A stretch of DNA of 64,000 bases from a virus (lineage: Duplodnaviria > Caudoviricetes): IMG/VR virus record IMGVR_UViG_3300048606_000120, positions 32,001 through 96,000 of that record, one strand, 5' to 3'. How positions within the stretch are numbered: the first letter of the stretch is position 1; every line of letters begins with the position of its first letter. The notes beneath the pieces were generated by a model. That model had not been told where the DNA came from. It saw only the letters and a list, made by a program, of their open reading frames with translations, and did not search any database. Shown one piece after another: positions 1-8,989 of this stretch. The position numbers were made by a program, and so were the translations under genes.

Positions 1-1023
1 AGTAACGGGCTCAAGGTAGTCAGCACGTTTAGCGGCTGCGGCGGCTCCTGCCTTGGCTTCGAAATGGCCGGCTACCGAATCCTTTGGGCGAATGAGTTCG
101 TGCCAGAGGCGCGCGCGACGTATGTGCAAAACCATCCCGGCGTCATCCTCGACGATCGCGACATCAGGCTCGTGAAAGCAGCCGACATCCTGCAAGCTAC
201 TGGCCTGAAGTCAGGTGAGCTGGACGTCTTTGAGGGGTCGCCGCCGTGCTCATCGTTTTCGACCGCTGGCAAGCGCGCGAAAGGGTGGGGCGAAACCAAA
301 AAATACAGCGATGTAAAGCAGCGCTCGGACGACCTGTTTTTCGAGTACGCGCGCCTGCTAGACGGCTTGCAGCCGAAGGTGTTTATCGCCGAGAACGTGA
401 GCGGGCTCGTGAAAGGCGCTGCGTGGGGCTACTTCGAGCAGATCATTCGCGCGCTCAAGCGCTGCGGCTACCGGGTCAAGGCAAAGGTGCTCGACGCGCA
501 GTGGCTTGGCGTGCCGCAAAAGCGAGCGCGGCTGATCTTCATGGGCGTGCGCGAAGACCTCGAGCTCGATCCAGTGCATCCGAAACCGCTGGCTCGCCGC
601 TACTCGATCCGCGACGCGCTGCCGGCGTTCAAAGGCGTTCTGCAGGTCGGTAACCCGGATCACAAACAGAAGCCTGGCAATAGCTTTCCTCGAGGCGCGA
701 TCGTGCACGCTCACGAAAGCGCGCTGACTGTGTGCGCGGGAGTCGGGACTATGTCTGGTGCGCCTGTTCGGATCTTTGAGAACGGCATCCCGAAGCGTGG
801 CGCGCTAGCCGAACCACGCAAGTTCACCATTCCCGAAATCAAACGGCTATGCGGGTTCCCAGATGATTTCATCCTGACGGGAAGCTTCGCGCAGCAGTGG
901 GAGCGTTGCGGGCGCTCCGTGCCGCCAGTCATGATGTTTCACGTGGCGCGGACGCTGCGGGATGAAGTATTTGGCAAGGTATGCAAGCTGCCGGCTCAAG
1001 CTCGCGAAGCGCGGCCAACCTGA
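1..1023 (+). CDS. C5-cytosine DNA methyltransferase-fold enzyme, predicted carboxymethyltransferase; 5'-truncated by the window edge
   Basis: Frame 1 is open from base 1 (SNGLKVVSTFSGCGG = motif I). Also GSPPC (motif IV), ENVSG (VI), QKRARL (VIII), RLCGFPDDF (IX) and motif X ERCGRSVPP with Arg (913-915) in place of the usual Asn. Confidence 0.93.
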   Translation, partial: SNGLKVVSTFSGCGGSCLGFEMAGYRILWANEFVPEARATYVQNHPGVILDDRDIRLVKAADILQATGLKSGELDVFEGSPPCSSFSTAGKRAKGWGETKKYSDVKQRSDDLFFEYARLLDGLQPKVFIAENVSGLVKGAAWGYFEQIIRALKRCGYRVKAKVLDAQWLGVPQKRARLIFMGVREDLELDPVHPKPLARRYSIRDALPAFKGVLQVGNPDHKQKPGNSFPRGAIVHAHESALTVCAGVGTMSGAPVRIFENGIPKRGALAEPRKFTIPEIKRLCGFPDDFILTGSFAQQWERCGRSVPPVMMFHVARTLRDEVFGKVCKLPAQAREARPT

Positions 1024-1487
1024 TCTGGAGCGACGACGGGTTCAAGATCGTGCTTGTGGGTCAAGCGCCGTCGCGCGACACGGACGGCAGAGCGCCGTTC
1101 AGCGGCAAGTCTGGGCAGCGACTTGAACGGCTAGCCGGTCTTGGCTCGGGCGAGCTGCAGGCGCGCTTCGCGCTGGCCAACGTGCTGCAGCGCTGGCCAG
1201 GCAGCGCCGGCAAGGGCGACTTGTTCCCGATGGCAGACGCGAGGAGGGCTGCGCCGCGCCTTCTGCGGGCGCTGGCTGGCAGGAGGGTGGTGGCTGTCGG
1301 GTGTGCCGTGGCCAAGGCGCTTGGCGTCGCGAGCGCTCTTCCGGACCTGACTTGGCGGAAGTTCGCGCTGCTTGACGCGATCGCGGTTGTGCCTCACCCA
1401 TCAGGAGTCAATCGGTGGTGGAACGAGCCCGGCAACCGCGACGCGGCAGCGGCGTTCTTGAGGTCGTTGTGGCCGGCAGCGCACTAA
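981..1487 (+). CDS. Uracil-DNA glycosylase superfamily protein (family-4-like, no Fe-S cysteines); true start may be slightly downstream
   Basis: VLVGQAPS...PFSGKSGQRL (motif A region) and PHPSGVNRWWN (motif B). Confidence 0.8.
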   Translation: MQAAGSSSRSAANLIWSDDGFKIVLVGQAPSRDTDGRAPFSGKSGQRLERLAGLGSGELQARFALANVLQRWPGSAGKGDLFPMADARRAAPRLLRALAGRRVVAVGCAVAKALGVASALPDLTWRKFALLDAIAVVPHPSGVNRWWNEPGNRDAAAAFLRSLWPAAH

Positions 1488-1526
1488 CGGAATTCGGTAG
1501 AAGGGCAATCCCATGACGGAGCCGAC

Positions 1527-2909
1527 GTGTGCGGAATAGTTGGCGGGCTCGGCGAGCCGAGCGAAGCGGCGCTCGCGGCCATCGAGCACCGCGGCCCTGA
1601 TCATCAGGCCATCATTCGGCGAGGCTCGATCTGGCTTGGTCACGCTCGCCTCTCAATCATCGACGTGGGCAGCTTGAGCGACCAGCCGTTCGTGCGCGGA
1701 GATCTCACGTTGGTCTACAACGGCGAGCTGTGGAATTATGTCGAGCTTCGCGAGGAGCTCCGGGCGCTCGGCCACCGCTTCGCGACGGCTGGCGACACTG
1801 AGGTCTTCGCAGCTGCTTTGCAGCAGTGGAGCGTGGACGCGCTGCATCGCATGCAAGGCATGTTCGCCGCAGCATGGACGAACGGCGACGGCGTTCTGCA
1901 CCTCGCTCGCGATCGACACGGCGAGGTGCCGCTGCACGGCTTCCTCGGCAAGCCGTTTACGTTCGCGAGCGAGCTTAAGGCGTTCAAGGCGATGGGTCTC
2001 GACTCGCGCGGCTACGAGTGGGTCGGTCCAGGCGAGTGGTGGCAGGTGAGCGCCGCCGGCATTCGCCGATCGATCTGGTACATCACGCCGAAAAAGGTTC
2101 TTGACTGCAGCCGACAGAAAGCCGAAGAACTCGTGTTCGCGGGCGTCGAGCAGGGCGCCGTCGAGCGAACCATCTCGGACGTGCCTGTGTGCACCCTGCT
2201 GTCAGGCGGAGTTGACTCAGCAGCAGTCGCGGCTCACCTCGCAACTCGGCTGCCGAACTTGGTCGCGTATGTTGCCGTGATGAATCCGAGCTCGCCTGAC
2301 GTGCGCGCAGCGCGCGAAGTCGCTGAGTTCATCGGGATTGAGCTGCGCGAGGTGATCGTGCCAGCTCCGACGTCCGACGACCTAGCGGCGGTGGTCCGGC
2401 AGATCGAGCAGCCGCACAAAGCTCAGGTTGAGATCGGCTGGGCGTGCTCGCGGCTCGCGCTGGCGATGCGCGCTGACGGCTTCAAGGTCACGTTCTCGGG
2501 CGAGGGTTCGGATGAGCTGTGGGCTTCGTACGGGTTCGCCTATCACGGGATTCAAAGCAAGGGTTGGGGGCCGTTCCGGCGCGAGCTCTTCTACGATCAG
2601 CACCGCAAGAACTTCGCGCGCTGCAACAAGGTCTTCATGGCCGCCGGCATCGAGTGCCGCTTACCGTTTCTTTCGACGTACCTCGTAGAAGTCGCTCTTG
2701 CGCTGCCGCAGGAGATCGTTCAGCGAGGCAAGTCGCGTCCGAAGGCAGTGCTCCAGGATAGCCACGCTCGCCTGCTTCCGAAGCGCATCGTGGCGCGGCA
2801 GAAGCTCGCCTTCCAGGACGGTTTGGGGCTCAAGGACGAGTGCAAGAAGGCAGCAGCAGACCCGCGCGCCTTCTATCAGGGCGTGTGGTCTGAGCTGTTC
2901 GGAAGTTGA
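1527..2909 (+). CDS. asnB: Asparagine synthetase B-like glutamine amidotransferase
   Basis: N-terminal nucleophile MCGI, then RGPD, HARLSIID, NGELWN, DTEV; ATP-pyrophosphatase loop LLSGGVDS; SGEGSDE; ECRLPFL. GGAG ribosome-binding site before the GTG start. Confidence 0.93.
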   Translation: MCGIVGGLGEPSEAALAAIEHRGPDHQAIIRRGSIWLGHARLSIIDVGSLSDQPFVRGDLTLVYNGELWNYVELREELRALGHRFATAGDTEVFAAALQQWSVDALHRMQGMFAAAWTNGDGVLHLARDRHGEVPLHGFLGKPFTFASELKAFKAMGLDSRGYEWVGPGEWWQVSAAGIRRSIWYITPKKVLDCSRQKAEELVFAGVEQGAVERTISDVPVCTLLSGGVDSAAVAAHLATRLPNLVAYVAVMNPSSPDVRAAREVAEFIGIELREVIVPAPTSDDLAAVVRQIEQPHKAQVEIGWACSRLALAMRADGFKVTFSGEGSDELWASYGFAYHGIQSKGWGPFRRELFYDQHRKNFARCNKVFMAAGIECRLPFLSTYLVEVALALPQEIVQRGKSRPKAVLQDSHARLLPKRIVARQKLAFQDGLGLKDECKKAAADPRAFYQGVWSELFGS

Positions 2910-2942
2910 TCTCTGCCCCCTGAACCACGTCTTCTTTGATCC

Positions 2943-3665
2943 ATGGACGGTCAAAAAGACGAGGTGGTCCCAAGTGCGCGCTGGGAGTTCGACTCGAACG
3001 TGGCCGCCGCGTTCGACGACATGCTGGCGCGATCGATCCCGCAGATCGATGTCATGCGCGACTCGGTGCACCAGGTGGCACGCCAACACGTTGTTCCGAT
3101 GGCGCCGATCGTGGATCTCGGCTGCTCGCGCGGCGGGGCGCTGGCGCGCTTCGTCGATGAGTTCGGAGTGAGCAATCGGTATTACGGAGTCGACGTGTCC
3201 GAGCCGATGCTCGCCGCGGCGCGCGAGCGCTTCGCGAAGATGGACGGTGTCGTTCAGATCGAGAACCGGGACCTGCGCACGAGCTACCCTGACGTTGGCG
3301 TCGCGTGCGTGACGACCGCGGTGCTCACGCTCCAGTTTGTGCCGATCAACTACCGCCAGCAGATCATGCGGCAGGTCTACGGCCACACGCTGCCTGGCGG
3401 TGCGTTCGTCGTCGTCGAGAAGATCCTCGGCAACGGAGCTCGCGTCGACGACATGCTGGTATCGCTCTACCACCGCTTCAAGGAGCAGAGCGGCGGCTAC
3501 TCGCGCGAAGCGATCGCCCGCAAAGCGGCTTCGCTCGAAGGCGTGCTTGTGCCCGTGACAGCCGAGATGAATGAGCAGATGCTGCGCTCAGCCGGATTTC
3601 GCGAAGTTGACTGTTTTTGGAGATGGATGAACTTCGCCGCGTGGGTTGCGATCAAGGGAGGCTGA
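2943..3665 (+). CDS. cmoA: CmoA-like carboxy-S-adenosylmethionine synthase
   Basis: WEFDSNVAAAFDDMLARSIP, DLGCSRG, LTLQFV, PGGAFVVVEK, FK..GYS..I..K..SLEGV and AGF....FWRWMNF match the CmoA pattern along the whole length. Confidence 0.88.
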   Translation: MDGQKDEVVPSARWEFDSNVAAAFDDMLARSIPQIDVMRDSVHQVARQHVVPMAPIVDLGCSRGGALARFVDEFGVSNRYYGVDVSEPMLAAARERFAKMDGVVQIENRDLRTSYPDVGVACVTTAVLTLQFVPINYRQQIMRQVYGHTLPGGAFVVVEKILGNGARVDDMLVSLYHRFKEQSGGYSREAIARKAASLEGVLVPVTAEMNEQMLRSAGFREVDCFWRWMNFAAWVAIKGG

Positions 3666-3666
3666 G

Positions 3667-3960
3667 ATGCGACTCGAGAGCGTGGTGCTGACAGTGCCAG
3701 CCGCGCCTGGAAACGGCGCTTCTGCCAAAGTTCGCGACCTGACCACGAAATACGTGCAGGTCGGCGGAACGTTCACGGGTTCACTCAACATCGAGGTGAG
3801 CCTCAACGGAACCGACTACGTGCCGACGGTCGCGGGAATCACCGCGCCGGGGCTCTTCGAAGTGCCAGAGCCAGCGACGTATGTCCGCATGGCCGTGGGC
3901 TCGCTGTCATCGGGCACGCCCACGGCAACTCTCAACGGCTACGACATTCGAACTGACTGA
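3667..3960 (+). CDS. Hypothetical beta-rich virion-type protein
   Basis: ATG at 3667 follows GGAGG; Gly/Thr/Val-rich; lies immediately before the portal. Confidence 0.65.
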   Translation: MRLESVVLTVPAAPGNGASAKVRDLTTKYVQVGGTFTGSLNIEVSLNGTDYVPTVAGITAPGLFEVPEPATYVRMAVGSLSSGTPTATLNGYDIRTD

Positions 3961-3962
3961 CC

Positions 3963-6911
3963 ATGGCTCCTGACGACGGCGAAATAACGGCTGAGGAGCG
4001 GATCAACGAGGTTGCTGGTCCTCGCGACGTCCTCATGAAGGCCTACTCGATTGGGCTGGAGAAGGCCGAGAAGCAGTCCTCGAGCTCGGCTGACAGCAGC
4101 GGCGTCGTGCAGATGGGGATTATCGCCGATGTCATCGAGCCTCCCTACGATCCACAGGTGTTGTGCAAGCTGTACGAGCACAGCAGCTCGCTGCGGCAAA
4201 ACGTCGATGCCTACGCAACCAACATCGACGGGTTCGGGCACGTGTTCGAGCCGTTAGTTGAGCTGAAGGAGGCGGGCGCTCGCGAGCTCGTGGCGGACGC
4301 GATTTACCTCGAGCGATCGCAGGCGATCAATGAAGGCGTTTTGGGGTCAATCCTGACCACGAATCCTCCGAGCGAAGCGGAGGTCTCGAAGAAGATCGAA
4401 GATCTTCGCTACCAGATGCGGGTCGAGAAGGCTCGGATCGACAGCTTCTTCGAGAACTGCGTTGCTGAGGAGAGCTTCACCCGATTGCGTCGCAAAACGC
4501 GAGAAGACATCGAGGTCACTGGCAACGGTTATTGGGAGGTCATCCGCAACGACTCGGGACAGATCTCGCAGTTCGCCCACATGCCAAGTCGATCCGTGCG
4601 GGTGATGAAGGAAAAGAGCCCGTCCATCAGCGTCACTCAGCCGATCCGCGTCAGCTTGCTGTTGTTCCGACACGAGACATTCAAACGACGTTTTCGCCGC
4701 TACGTTCAGATCGGCGACGAGCACGCGTGGTTCAAGGAGTTCGGCGATCCGACGGTCGTGTCGAACAAGACCGGCAAATCGTTCGAAAACGTCGAAGCTT
4801 TGCGAGCAGTCGAGGGAAGTGCTCAGCCGGCAAACGAGGTTTTCCACTTCAAGATTCCCAGCCTGAAAAACGGGTCGTACGGCGTACCGCGGTGGATCGG
4901 TAACCTGCTTTCGGTGCTCGGCTCGCGCAGTGCTGAAGAGGTGAACCTCGCCTATTTCGACAACAAGTCGATCCCGCCGATGGCGATCCTCGTGTCGGGT
5001 GGTCGCTTGGGCAGTGACTCGGTGAAGCGCATCGAGAGCTTTGTCGAGACTCAACTGAAGGGCCGCAAGAACTACCACAAGATCCTCGTCATCGAAGCTG
5101 AGACAACTGCAGGCTCGATCGGTTTGGCCGACAACAACGGCTCGATGCGAGTCGAGATCAAGATGCTGACCGACGCGCAACTCAAGGACGGCTTGTTCCT
5201 CGCTTACGACGCGGCGAACATGGACAAAGTCGGCATGGGGTTCCGGTTACCGCGCTTGCTTCGTGGTGACATTCGAGATTTTAACCGCGCTTGCTACAGC
5301 GCCGACACGGAAACGCTGACAGAGAACGGTTGGAAGTTGCATCACGAGATTGCGTCAGACGAGCGCATCGCCGTGTTCGATCCGAAAGCTTGCGAGCTCA
5401 GGTTCGAAGTGCCGTCTGCAAAGCATGTCTACGATGTCGACGAAAACCTGTACCGGTTCAACAGCCAGCACATCGATGCGAACGTGACTGCAAATCATAC
5501 GATGTTGGTTCGCTGCCCGGGGCGAGGATGGACATTTGAAGCCGCGGCAGATACCGCTACACGGTCGCGGTTCGAAGTGATGTGTGCGCCCGAGGTCGAC
5601 TCGCACGGTGAGACGATTGGCAAGTTCGTTTTACCCAAGCAGTGCCAGATCGAACGGGGCCATTCTCACGGCCCGATCGCAGGCGACGATTGGCTCGAGT
5701 TTTTGGGGTATTTTCTTTCAGACGGCGGCCTGCTCGAAACAGACAACCCGGCAGCGGAATACCTAGTCTTCATTCGGCAGCAGAAAGAGCCGTGCCGGTC
5801 GAAGATGCAGGCTTGTTTGGACCGCATCGGGTGGGCGTATTCGATTCAGATCAAGGCAGACGGCGCCAATGTCTTCTGCATCTCGAATCGTTGCCTGCGA
5901 GGGTGGTTGCTCGAACATTGCGGGGGTCGTTCTGCGGGTCGTCACATGCCGGCTGGGTATGCGACTGGCTTGCCGCGTGCTCAGCTCAAGATTCTGTGGC
6001 AAGCGATGCTTTTGGGCGACGGCTCGTGTGGAAAACAGTCGACAAACGGCAGCTACTATTCTGCTTCACGAGCGCTGATTGACGACGTGCAGATCGTCGC
6101 TCTCAGGCTCGGGTTGCGCTCTCTCATTCGCTGGGCACCGAACGCGCACGTGTTCCAGCTCGGCTGGTCCACATGGAAGACAACTCAATTGAAGGATTTT
6201 CACGTCGAGGCTGAGCGCTACAAGGGCGAGGTCTTTTGCTTCACATGTCCGGGAGCAGGGTTCTTCGTTACACGCCGCAACGGGAAAATCGCGATCCAGG
6301 GTAACAGTGCAGAAGCGGCGTTGGACTTTGCCGAGTCTCAAGTGTTCGTGCCGGAGCGCAACGACTTCGATTTCACGATGAACCGCTTCATCCTGGCGAG
6401 CTTCGGCATTCGCTATTGGCGCTTCAAGAGCAATGGTCCGCGCCTGAGTGATGCGCAGAGCTGGGGCGAGATGATCGTGAAGCTCACGAACGCGGGAGTC
6501 TTGGTGCCTGCCGATGCTCGCGAGCTCACGAGCAAGAAGGTGCTCGCCCAAGAGCTACCCGTCATCAAAGCCGACTGGGTCAATCAGCCGCTTAGCCTGA
6601 CGATCGCTGGCATTCAAGCGGACAACGCTCTTGATGGTGAGATTCCGATGGCCGTCAGTGGCCCGAGCGGCTCGAGCGGTACCAACGATCAGGGCATCGG
6701 AGTGACGCCGACTCCGAGCTTGCTGAAGGCAGCGAAGGATAAGCTCATGCGCAAGGCGAAGAGCCTCGTGAAGCTGCGCAACGAGTTCTTGAAGCAGCAA
6801 GCCGTCGAAGCCGTGAAAGAGTACCAGGACGAGCGCGTCGACGAAGGCGAGATCGTGTTTCAGATGAGCGCTGCTGAGATGGAGGAGCACTTCGGGATCA
6901 AGCCTCAGTGA
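3963..6911 (+). CDS. Portal protein (PBSX/XkdE-like) containing an intein
   Basis: IEPPYD, TGNGYWEVIRN, YGVPRWIG, N.AYFDN..IP; the exteins rejoin as DFNRA|SAEAA. Confidence 0.92.
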   Translation: MAPDDGEITAEERINEVAGPRDVLMKAYSIGLEKAEKQSSSSADSSGVVQMGIIADVIEPPYDPQVLCKLYEHSSSLRQNVDAYATNIDGFGHVFEPLVELKEAGARELVADAIYLERSQAINEGVLGSILTTNPPSEAEVSKKIEDLRYQMRVEKARIDSFFENCVAEESFTRLRRKTREDIEVTGNGYWEVIRNDSGQISQFAHMPSRSVRVMKEKSPSISVTQPIRVSLLLFRHETFKRRFRRYVQIGDEHAWFKEFGDPTVVSNKTGKSFENVEALRAVEGSAQPANEVFHFKIPSLKNGSYGVPRWIGNLLSVLGSRSAEEVNLAYFDNKSIPPMAILVSGGRLGSDSVKRIESFVETQLKGRKNYHKILVIEAETTAGSIGLADNNGSMRVEIKMLTDAQLKDGLFLAYDAANMDKVGMGFRLPRLLRGDIRDFNRACYSADTETLTENGWKLHHEIASDERIAVFDPKACELRFEVPSAKHVYDVDENLYRFNSQHIDANVTANHTMLVRCPGRGWTFEAAADTATRSRFEVMCAPEVDSHGETIGKFVLPKQCQIERGHSHGPIAGDDWLEFLGYFLSDGGLLETDNPAAEYLVFIRQQKEPCRSKMQACLDRIGWAYSIQIKADGANVFCISNRCLRGWLLEHCGGRSAGRHMPAGYATGLPRAQLKILWQAMLLGDGSCGKQSTNGSYYSASRALIDDVQIVALRLGLRSLIRWAPNAHVFQLGWSTWKTTQLKDFHVEAERYKGEVFCFTCPGAGFFVTRRNGKIAIQGNSAEAALDFAESQVFVPERNDFDFTMNRFILASFGIRYWRFKSNGPRLSDAQSWGEMIVKLTNAGVLVPADARELTSKKVLAQELPVIKADWVNQPLSLTIAGIQADNALDGEIPMAVSGPSGSSGTNDQGIGVTPTPSLLKAAKDKLMRKAKSLVKLRNEFLKQQAVEAVKEYQDERVDEGEIVFQMSAAEMEEHFGIKPQ
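5292..6305 (+). mobile_element. Intein with LAGLIDADG-type homing endonuclease, in the portal
   Basis: Begins CYSADTETLTENGW, block B VTANH, endonuclease blocks FLGYFLSDG and AMLLGDG, ends IAIQGN followed by Ser at +1. Confidence 0.93.
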
Positions 6912-8989
6912 GGCGGCAGCAGCCCACGATTGCAGATGGCATCCGGGCAGCGGAAGATTTGGCGTCGGCGCTGCTCGGCTTCAGCGTTCACAAGGCGACT
7001 GACCCGATGTCACCGAGTGGGTTCTTGCTGATCGGCAAGGCTGTCTCCGAGAAGCTGAAGGGGGCCGTCAAAGGAGCTGAGGCAGACGCGGTCGCCGGCG
7101 TCATTCACAAGCTCGGGTTCGACTGGGCGAAGCTCTCTCCAGAAGCTGCGACGCGCGCGATGGATGCCGTCAATCAGGCGATCGGGGCCTCCTACGAGGC
7201 GAAGGTCATGCCCAAGATCGACGGCGTGTTGGAGATCGAAGGTCCCAAGGTTATGAAGGGGACCAAGAAGTCGATTGCAGTGCGCGAGAAGTTCGCGATC
7301 GCTACGAGCCTCGCTCAACGCGATCTGCAGGCAGAGAAGGCGATTCGCAAGCAGCAAGTGAACTTTATCCGTAACTCGAGCGGCGACCGCATCGCGACTG
7401 CATCGGTCAAAGCTCGGTCGATTGTCGCTCGTGGTGTGCGCGACGGAGTCGGAACTGATTTGATCGCTAAAAACCTGCATTCGCACTTCCTCGAGAACGT
7501 TCCGAGGCCGGAGTCCTATTGGCGAGTGGTGGCCGATGCATTTGTCGGCCGAGCTCGCACGACTTCGCAGGTCTATTCGTACGAGGATTCTGGAGTCGAG
7601 ACGATCGAGATCGTCGCAGTGCTCGATGAGGTGACCACCGACCAATGCCGCTTCATGGACGGCAAAGTCTTCACGATCCAGTCGGCGCGCGCTCTGCTCG
7701 ATACGCTGGGTTCGCTCGAGGAGCCGGAGGATGTGAAGTTCGCAGCGCCGTGGATTCGCAAAGGTCGTGATGAGCAAGGCGGTGGGATGCGCTTGTTCGT
7801 ACCGCATTCCGACGGCTCGACTACGACGATCGCGAAGATCGATCGCAGCGGCATTGGCAGTGCCGATGACAGGGGCCAGTTTTCAGGCGGAAAGAACTCA
7901 GCAGATCTCGCAAAGCTTGGCTCCTCGATGCCGCCCTACCATGGCCGTTGCCGAACAACGACAGTAGCTGCATCGGAGTCAGGCCAATCAGCGCCGGTGA
8001 TGGTGCCGGGCGCCGATCTTCAGGTTCCTGTCGCAGCTCCTGTCGAAGAGGCTCCCTCTCTTCCGCCAGAGGCGGAGATCCCAGATTGGATGACTGCTGA
8101 TGAGCTCAATGTGGTGTCGCAACGGCGAATCGACGGCGGCATGACCGGTGCTCGACAGCTGACGATCAAAGATGCGGACGGCGTCGAACAGCGTGCGGTG
8201 TGGAAAGCAGTCTCGGGCGAAGACGTCGGCGAGGTGCTTCGCAGGGGGGTTCAAGCCGGCACCTACTACCAGCGGGAGGGCGCCGCCTATCAGCTCGATT
8301 CGATGCTCGGCGGAGAGACGGTCGTTCCTCCGACGGTGAGCCGGAAGCATAAGGCATGGAGCAACGCTCACTTTCAAGAGGAAGGTAGTTTGCAGGCGTT
8401 TGTACAAGGGGCGAAGCCGACATCCAATGTTGATTGGAAGAAAGATGCCGGTGGTAAGAGTGCAAACGTGCTTGGCGCCGAGCTTGAACAGAAGCTGGCC
8501 AATGACCCGACCGTGCGTCGGCAGTTTTTGCTCGACGTGATCATGGCGAACGATGACCGCCATTCGGAGAACACTCTGTGGCGCACGGTCGGCGACTCGA
8601 TAAAGCCGGTCGCGATCGACAACGGGTTGAGCTTTCCCGAAAAACCGTGCCGATTTCTTTTCGCAGTGGAGAACTCAACAGAGTTGAAGAAGACGTTACT
8701 GACGTTCGACGAGGGCAGCATTGCGCATCTTGCGAAGCTCGATGTTGAGCGGGTTGCGACGCTGCTGAAGGGGTATGACGGCATCACCGAGACCCAGATC
8801 ACTGCAACTCTCGGCCGCATCCGAGCGTTGCAGAACAACTCGGGCACTCTGGCAGCCGGCGCTCAGTCATGGGAACAGCCGCAAGACACTGTATACTTTT
8901 GGCTTACACGTACTCCAGCAGAACGTGCTAAGCTAGGGGAGTTGACCGATGCCGACTTGGCAGAGATCACGAAACTCGCGAAGCGATGA
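6908..8989 (+). CDS. MuF / SPP1 gp7-like head morphogenesis protein with a C-terminal PI3/4-kinase/HipA-like domain
   Basis: AVLDEVTTDQCRFMDGK and PPYHGRCRTT (MuF); Pro/Glu linker; then AVWK, REGAAYQLD, VVPPT, GSLQAFV, NDDRHSEN, AIDNGLSF. Confidence 0.88.
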   Translation: MRRQQPTIADGIRAAEDLASALLGFSVHKATDPMSPSGFLLIGKAVSEKLKGAVKGAEADAVAGVIHKLGFDWAKLSPEAATRAMDAVNQAIGASYEAKVMPKIDGVLEIEGPKVMKGTKKSIAVREKFAIATSLAQRDLQAEKAIRKQQVNFIRNSSGDRIATASVKARSIVARGVRDGVGTDLIAKNLHSHFLENVPRPESYWRVVADAFVGRARTTSQVYSYEDSGVETIEIVAVLDEVTTDQCRFMDGKVFTIQSARALLDTLGSLEEPEDVKFAAPWIRKGRDEQGGGMRLFVPHSDGSTTTIAKIDRSGIGSADDRGQFSGGKNSADLAKLGSSMPPYHGRCRTTTVAASESGQSAPVMVPGADLQVPVAAPVEEAPSLPPEAEIPDWMTADELNVVSQRRIDGGMTGARQLTIKDADGVEQRAVWKAVSGEDVGEVLRRGVQAGTYYQREGAAYQLDSMLGGETVVPPTVSRKHKAWSNAHFQEEGSLQAFVQGAKPTSNVDWKKDAGGKSANVLGAELEQKLANDPTVRRQFLLDVIMANDDRHSENTLWRTVGDSIKPVAIDNGLSFPEKPCRFLFAVENSTELKKTLLTFDEGSIAHLAKLDVERVATLLKGYDGITETQITATLGRIRALQNNSGTLAAGAQSWEQPQDTVYFWLTRTPAERAKLGELTDADLAEITKLAKR

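Follow-up and report, generated by a model that had tools for sequence, protein, structure and literature searches.

Four co-oriented genes on the plus strand occupy the left end of the window, i.e. the 64,000-nucleotide stretch of DNA analyzed here, which belongs to the complete 109.5-kb genome of an uncultured phage: a gene with a C5-methyltransferase (MTase) fold (1..1023, 5' end cut by the window edge), a UDG-fold gene (981..1487), an AsnB-like gene (1527..2909) and a CmoA-like gene (2943..3665). The end of the MTase gene overlaps the UDG gene by 43 nt, and gaps of 39 nt and 33 nt follow the UDG gene and the AsnB-like gene, respectively. A simple promoter/terminator scan gave little information: it revealed no promoter-like sites and no plus-strand terminator-like sites within the cassette; the two terminator-like sites it returned lie on the minus strand and are fewer than in shuffled sequences. 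The original prediction had described four tightly packed co-oriented genes lacking a CmoB partner, and reading frames, domain matches and coordinates confirmed this layout, while the missing partner holds genome-wide: a profile search for CmoB (PF08003) found no match in the complete 109.5-kb genome. The whole genome carries one C5-MTase gene and one UDG-fold gene. Within the phage's own genome no thymidylate-synthase-like gene was found and ParB_N, chorismate mutase and TET/JBP gave no match, the TET/JBP search having been run without a positive control. Positions 1-8000 of the window had no megablast match among 50,697 phage records. Downstream of the cassette lies a 104-aa ORF; in the relative L146 this ORF goes together with the portal gene.

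The MTase reading frame is open at the left edge of the window and stops at 1023. Motif I (FSGCGG), at 25-42, precedes the ATG at 64, and the gene start must therefore fall outside the window; the likely start is GTG/ATG at G000:C1:31836/31839, some 164 nt upstream of window base 1. The resulting protein of about 395 aa matches PF00145 (E 9e-55) and has as its closest solved structure SpCmoX (8YF3; E 5.5e-65, 39% identity), with M.HaeIII reaching only 2.8e-26. SpCmoX belongs to the CmoA-CmoX-CmoY pathway proved in Synechococcus phage S-B43 (Yang et al., Nat Commun, Dec 2025, PMC12783734). In that study, 5,615 CmoX sequences were defined by an SPPC motif in a C5-MTase fold and an Arg at the position of SpCmoX R350 (Asn304 in M.HhaI), which binds the carboxylate of Cx-SAM and whose exchange to Asn (R350N) abolished activity. 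Both features are present in the window protein: the catalytic SPPC motif is encoded at 238-249, with GSPPCSSFS aligned to GSPPCSAFS of SpCmoX (S95-C98), and CGRSVPP is aligned to VGRMVPP of 8YF3, which places Arg360 (codon 913-915) at the R350 position. The protein is thus of the CmoX type, with predicted DNA cytosine C5-carboxymethyltransferase activity.

The last gene of the cassette encodes a predicted CmoA-type carboxy-SAM synthase. Its product matched TIGR00740 (E 1.5e-42) with 146 bits, under the cut-off of 193.3, and NF011995 with 97 bits, under the cut-off of 285, and it matched phrog_4752 with E 5e-68. Its top solved relatives are CmoA/YecO structures (E 9e-29 and 1.5e-26), and it is 30% identical to EcCmoA and 25% identical to the proven SpCmoA. 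[quoted passage not shown] Because SpCmoA is experimentally active with Glu, this position does not discriminate among phage CmoAs, and Arg199 was dropped as a criterion of membership. CmoA was the partner at 11 of 12 loci with an Arg-type CmoX and at none of six loci with an Asn-type MTase (Fisher p 4e-4).

The AsnB-like gene encodes a protein of 460 aa with GATase_6/7 and Asn_synthase domains, which by domains, residues and fold is a putative glutamine-dependent amide ligase. It starts with GTG followed by Cys2, the Ntn nucleophile (codon 1530-1532), and its SGGVDS PP-loop is encoded at 2202-2219. The AF2 model (pLDDT 94) shows the two-domain fold of E. coli AsnB (1CT9) with a TM score of 0.88 at 26% identity. 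All glutaminase residues are in place in the window protein, namely the N-terminal Cys, Arg49, Asn74, Glu76 and Asp98. Across the 121 members of the family no substitution occurs at Arg49, Gly75, Glu76 or Asp98; Cys1 is retained in 120-121 of them and Asn74 in 119. The SGGxDS PP-loop, E348, D351 and E352 are likewise invariant and K449 is present in 120. The PP-loop, E348, D351, K449 and the glutaminase residues are shared with E. coli AsnB, whereas the synthetase site differs from AsnB throughout the family by T322Q, Glu for the next Arg, K376L and D384N. A loss of the aspartate-binding residues of AsnB was considered and refuted, E348, D351 and E352 being retained. As these residues hold the amino group of aspartate, the residues alone are compatible with aspartate as a substrate, and the residue argument against an asparagine-synthetase role is weak and was not leaned on. 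The protein scored 263.2 bits against the asparagine-synthase equivalog TIGR01536, just under the cut-off of 267.1, and 223 bits against NF006949, under the cut-off of 499; it ends at about AsnB residue 488 and lacks some 65 residues of the AsnB C-terminus.

CmoY, too, is homologous to asparagine synthetase (PMC12783734), and the window ligase falls into one particular cluster of CmoY-like ligases. Along its full length it shares 49% identity with gp124 of Streptomyces phage TurkishDelight, i.e. UniRef100_A0A7T0Q3R0, the exemplar of the second-largest ligase cluster, which has a glutaminase domain and for which glutamine-derived ammonia was proposed as the substrate (PMC12783734). By definition, members of this cluster are at least ~30% identical to the exemplar, contain a glutaminase domain and have a CmoX on their contig (PMC12783734, Fig. 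8f), and the window ligase combines its 49% identity with these domains and an adjoining CmoX. Placement in the SpCmoY-type glycine ligase cluster, whose members have the ATP-binding domain only, was rejected, as the window ligase has a full glutaminase domain; its similarity to SpCmoY is 27% over 147 aa (E 7e-7). Yang et al. obtained no soluble enzyme from the A0A7T0Q3R0 cluster (PMC12783734), and consequently no member has been assayed so far. We infer that the window ligase may act on 5cxmC in DNA with ammonia as the nucleophile.

The association of the three genes was followed across non-redundant IMG/VR viral loci with enough flanking sequence (n=34). An Arg-type CmoX and a CmoA stood beside the glutaminase ligase in 33 of them, spanning three gene orders and GC contents of 32-72%, and the original call to look for dcm-cmoA-asnB together in other genomes was thereby answered in the affirmative. 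In bacterial assemblies, close relatives of the ligase were linked to CmoX and CmoA in 10 of 11 cases, while distant AsnB homologs (≤38% identity over partial matches) never were; this linkage also sets the window ligase family apart from E. coli AsnB. In marine loci with a CmoA that shares 85% identity with the proven SpCmoA, the glutaminase ligase occupies the exact slot of CmoY.

Two phages offer the closest comparisons. The S-B43 cassette (MN018232.1 147082-149704; PDB 8YF3) combines, like that of the window, a Cx-SAM synthase, an Arg-type CmoX and an ATP-dependent amide ligase of the asparagine-synthetase family, and likewise has no CmoB. Its SpCmoY, however, has 271 aa, lacks a glutaminase domain and ligates glycine, whereas the window ligase has 460 aa and a complete glutaminase domain. 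TurkishDelight gp123-gp125 (MW291017.1) has the order CmoX(Arg)-glutaminase ligase-CmoA, as in the window, with 49% identity for the ligase and 48% for CmoX, and glutamine-derived ammonia is the predicted substrate here as well. Two ParB-like genes lie upstream of it and there is no UDG-fold gene, whereas the window genome has the UDG-fold gene and no ParB_N. Neither S-B43 nor TurkishDelight carries a UDG of the window's clade and SpCmoY works without one, which indicates that the UDG is dispensable for the core chemistry.

The UDG gene product matched PF03167 (E 1.2e-10), and its AF2 model (pLDDT 88) reached TM scores of 0.6-0.69 to UdgX and family-4 UDGs. Its motifs are GQAPS, an invariant Asn67, a WPGxxGKGDxFP loop and HPSGVNRWWN. 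Membership in family 4 was rejected: motif A reads GQAPS and not GE(A/G)PG, the protein has a single Cys and not the four Fe-S cysteines, and it scored 17 bits against TIGR00758, under the cut-off of 125, with the fold and the motif B HPS present. By these features the protein is assigned to a separate clade of the UDG superfamily, which comprises 793 clusters at E≤1e-30. C5-MTases are direct neighbors of this clade in about 22 of 49 loci and TAGT glycosyltransferases in 10 loci; one member is fused to a chorismate mutase. The closest relative phage has the identical order MTase-UDG-AsnB-CmoA, and the UDG gene is found in about one of eight cassettes. Neither the phage TET paper nor the glycosyltransferase preprint refers to a UDG in its main text, and the tie of this clade to phage C5-cytosine modifiers is new relative to the literature searched.

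In E. coli, the dcm and vsr genes overlap, and Vsr repairs the T:G mismatches arising at Dcm sites. The window resembles this arrangement in that the end of a gene for a C5-cytosine transferase runs into a small gene with a DNA-repair fold (by the 43 nt given above), and the proposed role of the UDG is modeled on this arrangement. Vsr differs in being an endonuclease and not a UDG-fold glycosylase, and the analogy is a presumed one, of function only. We infer that the window UDG is most likely a glycosylase that would remove uracil or 5-substituted uracil arising at the target cytosines of the transferase, in a Vsr-like manner. A reading that we regard as rather less probable is that it is not a repair enzyme but a subunit that docks DNA or presents bases for the ligase and for further C5-cytosine modifiers, or that it acts as a decoy for glycosylases of the host. 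Two independent CmoY::UDG fusions located between CmoX and CmoA (L190, L188) speak for such a role, as does the proximity of the clade to TAGT glycosyltransferases and C5-MTases. However, the two residues described as catalytic in family-4 UDGs (PMC5387724), Asn of motif 3 and His of motif B, are both invariant in the window's clade; moreover, most cassettes function without a UDG, and the clade also stands beside plain Asn-type methyltransferases lacking any ligase.

Taken together, we consider it probable that the locus is a cassette of the CmoA-CmoX-ligase kind that hypermodifies cytosine in DNA after replication, with 5-carbamoylmethylcytosine as its product and the UDG as an accessory. 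This assignment is based on the genes present, their diagnostic residues and folds, and their conserved linkage, and the activities of CmoA, CmoX and CmoY were demonstrated by others, for homologs only. In the proposed sequence of events, CmoA would convert SAM and host prephenate to carboxy-SAM, and Cys138 of CmoX would attack C6 of cytosine, so that the carboxymethyl group is moved to C5 while Arg360 holds the carboxylate of the cofactor. The PP-loop site of the ligase would then adenylate the carboxylate of 5-carboxymethylcytosine on DNA, and ammonia, freed from glutamine at the N-terminal Cys and channeled from one domain to the other, would amidate the adenylate. The expected 5-carbamoylmethylcytosine (dC +57.02 Da) would be a neutral mark, probably one that blocks restriction. 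N6-carbamoylmethyladenine made by Mu Mom and ncm5U in tRNA carry the same appended group, but the enzymes are unrelated and a different atom is modified, the likeness being one of product only.

The same cassette might instead yield another end product, if another amine were joined, if the neighboring N4 amino group trapped the adenylate to form a bicyclic lactam or if an unrecognized enzyme processed the amide further. Sister ligase clusters take glycine or unknown amines (PMC12783734), and the family-wide departures from AsnB in the synthetase site would fit such a change. Nevertheless we hold this to be unlikely: a complete and invariant glutaminase site would be costly unless glutamine is hydrolyzed, and no further tailoring gene is conserved beside the cassette, the 104-aa ORF going with the portal gene. 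An order in which the ligase acts before transfer, turning carboxy-SAM into carbamoylmethyl-SAM that the MTase-fold enzyme would then move onto DNA, predicts an identical end product from the same gene set, and the sequences do not fix the order of steps. It is very unlikely all the same, as the Arg for binding the carboxylate of the cofactor is retained in the transferase, the homologous SpCmoY acts on 5cxmC within double-stranded DNA in vitro (PMC12783734), and the CmoY::UDG fusions join the ligase to a fold that binds DNA. The notion that the genes form no single pathway, with the MTase making ordinary 5mC, the AsnB homolog serving as an auxiliary asparagine synthetase and CmoA feeding host tRNA modification, is hardly credible despite the retained acidic residues that contact aspartate in AsnB and the near-cut-off equivalog score, given the 33/34 co-occurrence in three gene orders and very different phages, the Arg-for-Asn change in motif X of the MTase, a genome without CmoB and the roughly 65 C-terminal AsnB residues missing from the ligase.

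Preferring 5-carbamoylmethylcytosine as the product, we find the originally suggested chemistry consistent with the residues, the folds and the linkage, the product itself being a deduction, albeit a well supported one. The novelty claimed for the pathway, on the other hand, has been overtaken in print, as the pathway, CmoY as an asparagine-synthetase homolog and the A0A7T0Q3R0 cluster with its proposed ammonia substrate are all described in PMC12783734, which thus anticipates the predicted chemistry. The suggestion that the base is undescribed in DNA stands within the literature searched, which held nothing relevant on 5-carbamoylmethylcytosine in DNA under any name. More tentatively, and with considerable doubt, one may propose in addition that the cassette makes this naturally unobserved base and that the UDG clade represents a new, large group of modification-coupled proofreading glycosylases, analogous to Vsr and sometimes fused to the ligase.

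With the core pathway published in December 2025, the locus is one more example of it. The near-complete conservation of the glutaminase site, the 33/34 linkage and the exchange of this module for the glycine ligase between nearly identical cassettes make the amide prediction firm enough to test; if true, a charge-neutral primary amide on C5 of cytosine would add a new base to those occurring naturally in DNA. The UDG clade linked to C5-cytosine modifiers may show how such phages deal with deamination where cytosines are heavily modified.

The source record is a complete virus of 109,517 bp with direct terminal repeats and a GC content of about 61%, in which portal and MuF-like head genes lie directly downstream of the modification cassette. 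Gene calls and family matches bore out the four plus-strand genes of the original prediction. The C5-MTase fold at the head of the cassette was confirmed, but the window edge cuts this gene: its motif I (FSGCGG) lies at window positions 25-42, ahead of the ATG at position 64, which therefore places the start about 164 nt upstream of the window (GTG/ATG at record coordinates G000:C1:31836/31839), for a plus-strand product of about 395 residues. The UDG-fold gene (981-1487, plus strand) overlaps the end of the C5-MTase gene by 43 nt and is followed after 39 nt by the AsnB-like gene (1527-2909, plus strand) and after a further 33 nt by the CmoA-like gene (2943-3665, plus strand). The reported lack of CmoB in the window holds for the whole genome, in which likewise no second C5-MTase, second UDG, thymidylate-synthase-like gene, ParB_N or chorismate mutase was found. 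The sole other DNA methyltransferase-like gene is of the N6/N4 type and lies outside the window (G000:C1 about 100.4-101.2 kb; PF01555, E 2e-11).

The surroundings of the cassette showed several further features. About 0.7 kb upstream of the C5-MTase gene lies a ParE-family toxin gene (L001:349-606, equal to G000:C1:30849-31106; PF05016, E 5.5e-14), preceded by an 81-residue ORF that could be its antitoxin. Downstream, a 104-residue ORF without family match (window 3646-3960) is 61% identical to the 98-residue ORF preceding the portal gene of the closest relative phage (L146), and its linkage is thus to the portal gene and not to the cassette. The portal gene itself (3963-6911) contains a 334-residue intein-like insert with a LAGLIDADG domain at about 5304-6305, whose first residue is a Cys following residue 447; the L146 portal (646 residues, 74% identical) lacks this insert, and a free-standing LAGLIDADG gene is located between cmoA and the portal gene of that phage. 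The MuF-like head protein (6908-8989) gave a weak C-terminal PI3/PI4-kinase-like match below the cut-off (E 2.4e-5).

The closest solved relative of the C5-MTase is SpCmoX of Synechococcus phage S-B43 (crystal structure 8YF3, E 5.5e-65; M.HaeIII, 2.8e-26). Yang et al. define CmoX by an SPPC motif and an Arg contacting the Cx-SAM carboxylate (PMC12783734). The window enzyme carries the motif as GSPPCSSFS, and its R360, within CGRSVPP, aligns with SpCmoX R350, a position occupied by Asn in ordinary C5-MTases. Closely related Arg-type and Asn-type transferases at UDG-anchored loci served as a natural control: CmoA was found nearby in 11 of 12 loci with an Arg-type transferase and in none of six with SPPCQ (or SPPCT) and G-N-(S/A)-VPP (Fisher p 4e-4). 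Compared with its L146 counterpart (L146:3200-4552), the window CmoX (1-1023) is 78% identical at both ends, while the central target-recognition regions (window residues about 271-325 versus about 143 residues in L146) do not align, which suggests from the alignment that sequence specificity has been swapped between these close relatives.

In S-B43, CmoA makes Cx-SAM (PMC12783734; Nat Commun, 7 Dec 2025), CmoX produces 5-carboxymethylcytosine (5cxmC) at GC sites in double-stranded DNA, and CmoY, an asparagine-synthetase homolog without glutaminase domain, ligates glycine to this base (PMC12783734). The same study presented a network of 2,251 CmoX-associated ligases, the second-largest cluster of which is exemplified by A0A7T0Q3R0; for this cluster the authors predict glutamine-derived ammonia as the substrate and report insoluble enzyme (PMC12783734). 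Exact look-up identified A0A7T0Q3R0 as gp124 of the cultured Streptomyces phage TurkishDelight. This protein is 49% identical to the window ligase over the full length and is encoded in the same CmoX-ligase-CmoA order; the pathway, originally put forward as new, is therefore a member of the published cluster, for which a substrate prediction is in print (PMC12783734). 5-Carbamoylmethylcytosine in DNA was not mentioned in the literature searched.

The CmoA-like protein has H. influenzae YecO and E. coli CmoA as its best solved relatives and matches phrog_4752 at 5e-68, although it scores below the curated CmoA cut-offs of NCBIfam and, in the alignment, lacks an equivalent of E. coli Arg199, reported to bind the cofactor carboxylate (PMC3663124). 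Neither observation discriminates, because the experimentally active SpCmoA has Glu in this column and is only 27.9% identical to E. coli CmoA. We assign the protein as a probable Cx-SAM synthase because of its family resemblance and because it strictly accompanies Arg-type transferases.

The N-terminal sequence of the ligase is fMet-Cys-Gly-Ile-Val-Gly. When it was aligned with E. coli AsnB and 120 relatives, the glutaminase-site residues Cys1, Arg49, Asn74 (119/121), Gly75, Glu76 and Asp98 were all but invariant, as were the SGGxDS PP-loop, Glu348, Asp351, Glu352 and Lys449 (120/121), and both domains of the AlphaFold model (pLDDT 94, pTM 0.91) superpose on E. coli AsnB with a TM-score of 0.88. 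The conserved residues and the AsnB-like model argue for a complete glutamine-hydrolysing, adenylate-forming amidotransferase, as predicted. By the NCBI cut-off of 267.1 bits the protein, which scores 263.2, does not count as an asparagine-synthase equivalog. The C-terminus falls near AsnB residue 488, and family-wide changes relative to AsnB replace T322 by Gln, the next Arg by Glu, K376 by Leu and D384 by Asn. The acidic residues that hold the amino group of aspartate in models of human ASNS are kept, so that, judged by residues alone, aspartate is still admissible as a substrate; possibly they are kept because 5cxmC also offers an amino group (N4) near the carboxylate.

A ligase profile search of IMG/VR returned 168 relatives, 80 of which were fetched; these contained 34 non-redundant loci whose flanks reached at least 1.8 kb on the upstream and at least 1.2 kb on the downstream side. 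The co-occurrence of the three genes proposed as a check was found at 33 of these 34 viral loci; the 33 encode both an Arg-type CmoX and CmoA and span three gene orders and GC contents from 0.32 to 0.72. In bacterial assemblies, the trio accompanied 10 of 11 close ligase relatives (Nonomuraea, Streptosporangium, Streptomyces and one Gemmataceae MAG contig) and never the more distant AsnB homologs. At marine loci such as L098 (5303-8561), CmoA is 85% identical to SpCmoA and a 463-residue glutaminase ligase occupies the exact slot of the 271-residue CmoY in S-B43 (L147 4501-7123); the ligase is thus a module that can be exchanged while the carboxymethyl handle stays the same. These linkage data, including the module swap, are the strongest evidence that the window ligase would act on 5cxmC in DNA.

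The AF2 model of the UDG-fold protein (pLDDT 88) resembles UdgX and family-4 UDGs (TM 0.6-0.69), followed by MUG/TDG. Its clade, 793 representative clusters at E<=1e-30 in a profile search, has motif A GQAPS, motif B HPSGVNRWWN, an invariant Asn (N67) and an invariant G-K-G-D-x-F-P loop, and lacks the Fe-S cysteines. Catalytic roles in family-4 UDGs have been reported for the Asn of motif 3 and the His of motif B (PMC5387724); both are retained in the clade. Among 49 non-redundant IMG/VR loci, about 13 adjoin an Arg-type CmoX and in nearly every case also have CmoA in the vicinity, and about nine adjoin Asn-type C5-MTases without CmoA. The remaining loci include 14 with a homolog of the TET-associated glycosyltransferase (PF20691), directly adjacent in ten (L032, L033, L039, L063, L021, L037, L060, L056, L013 and L038); no CmoX-like gene was found within 8 kb in phage contigs with this adjacency. 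The UDG is present in four of the 34 ligase cassettes and in L146, with the gene order of the window, and a search with positive control found none of this clade in S-B43 and TurkishDelight. In P0354 (two samples) and P0276, a SpCmoY-like ligase is fused to a UDG domain between an Arg-type CmoX and CmoA (L190:6001-7158; L188:418-1659), and in P0157 a chorismate mutase::UDG fusion lies beside CmoA (L007:1468-2160). Chorismate mutase produces prephenate, the co-substrate of CmoA. Sigma70::UDG and UDG::HNH fusions also occur in the clade.

A role of the UDG-fold protein as a docking subunit for the ligase is possible. By analogy with dcm-vsr, we read the UDG-fold protein as a putative optional, pathway-linked glycosylase that would act on deaminated target cytosines. 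The overall mechanism of the cassette is well supported by inference. The kind of pathway is already known, 5-carbamoylmethylcytosine is its predicted end product, and the UDG association offers a modest new lead.
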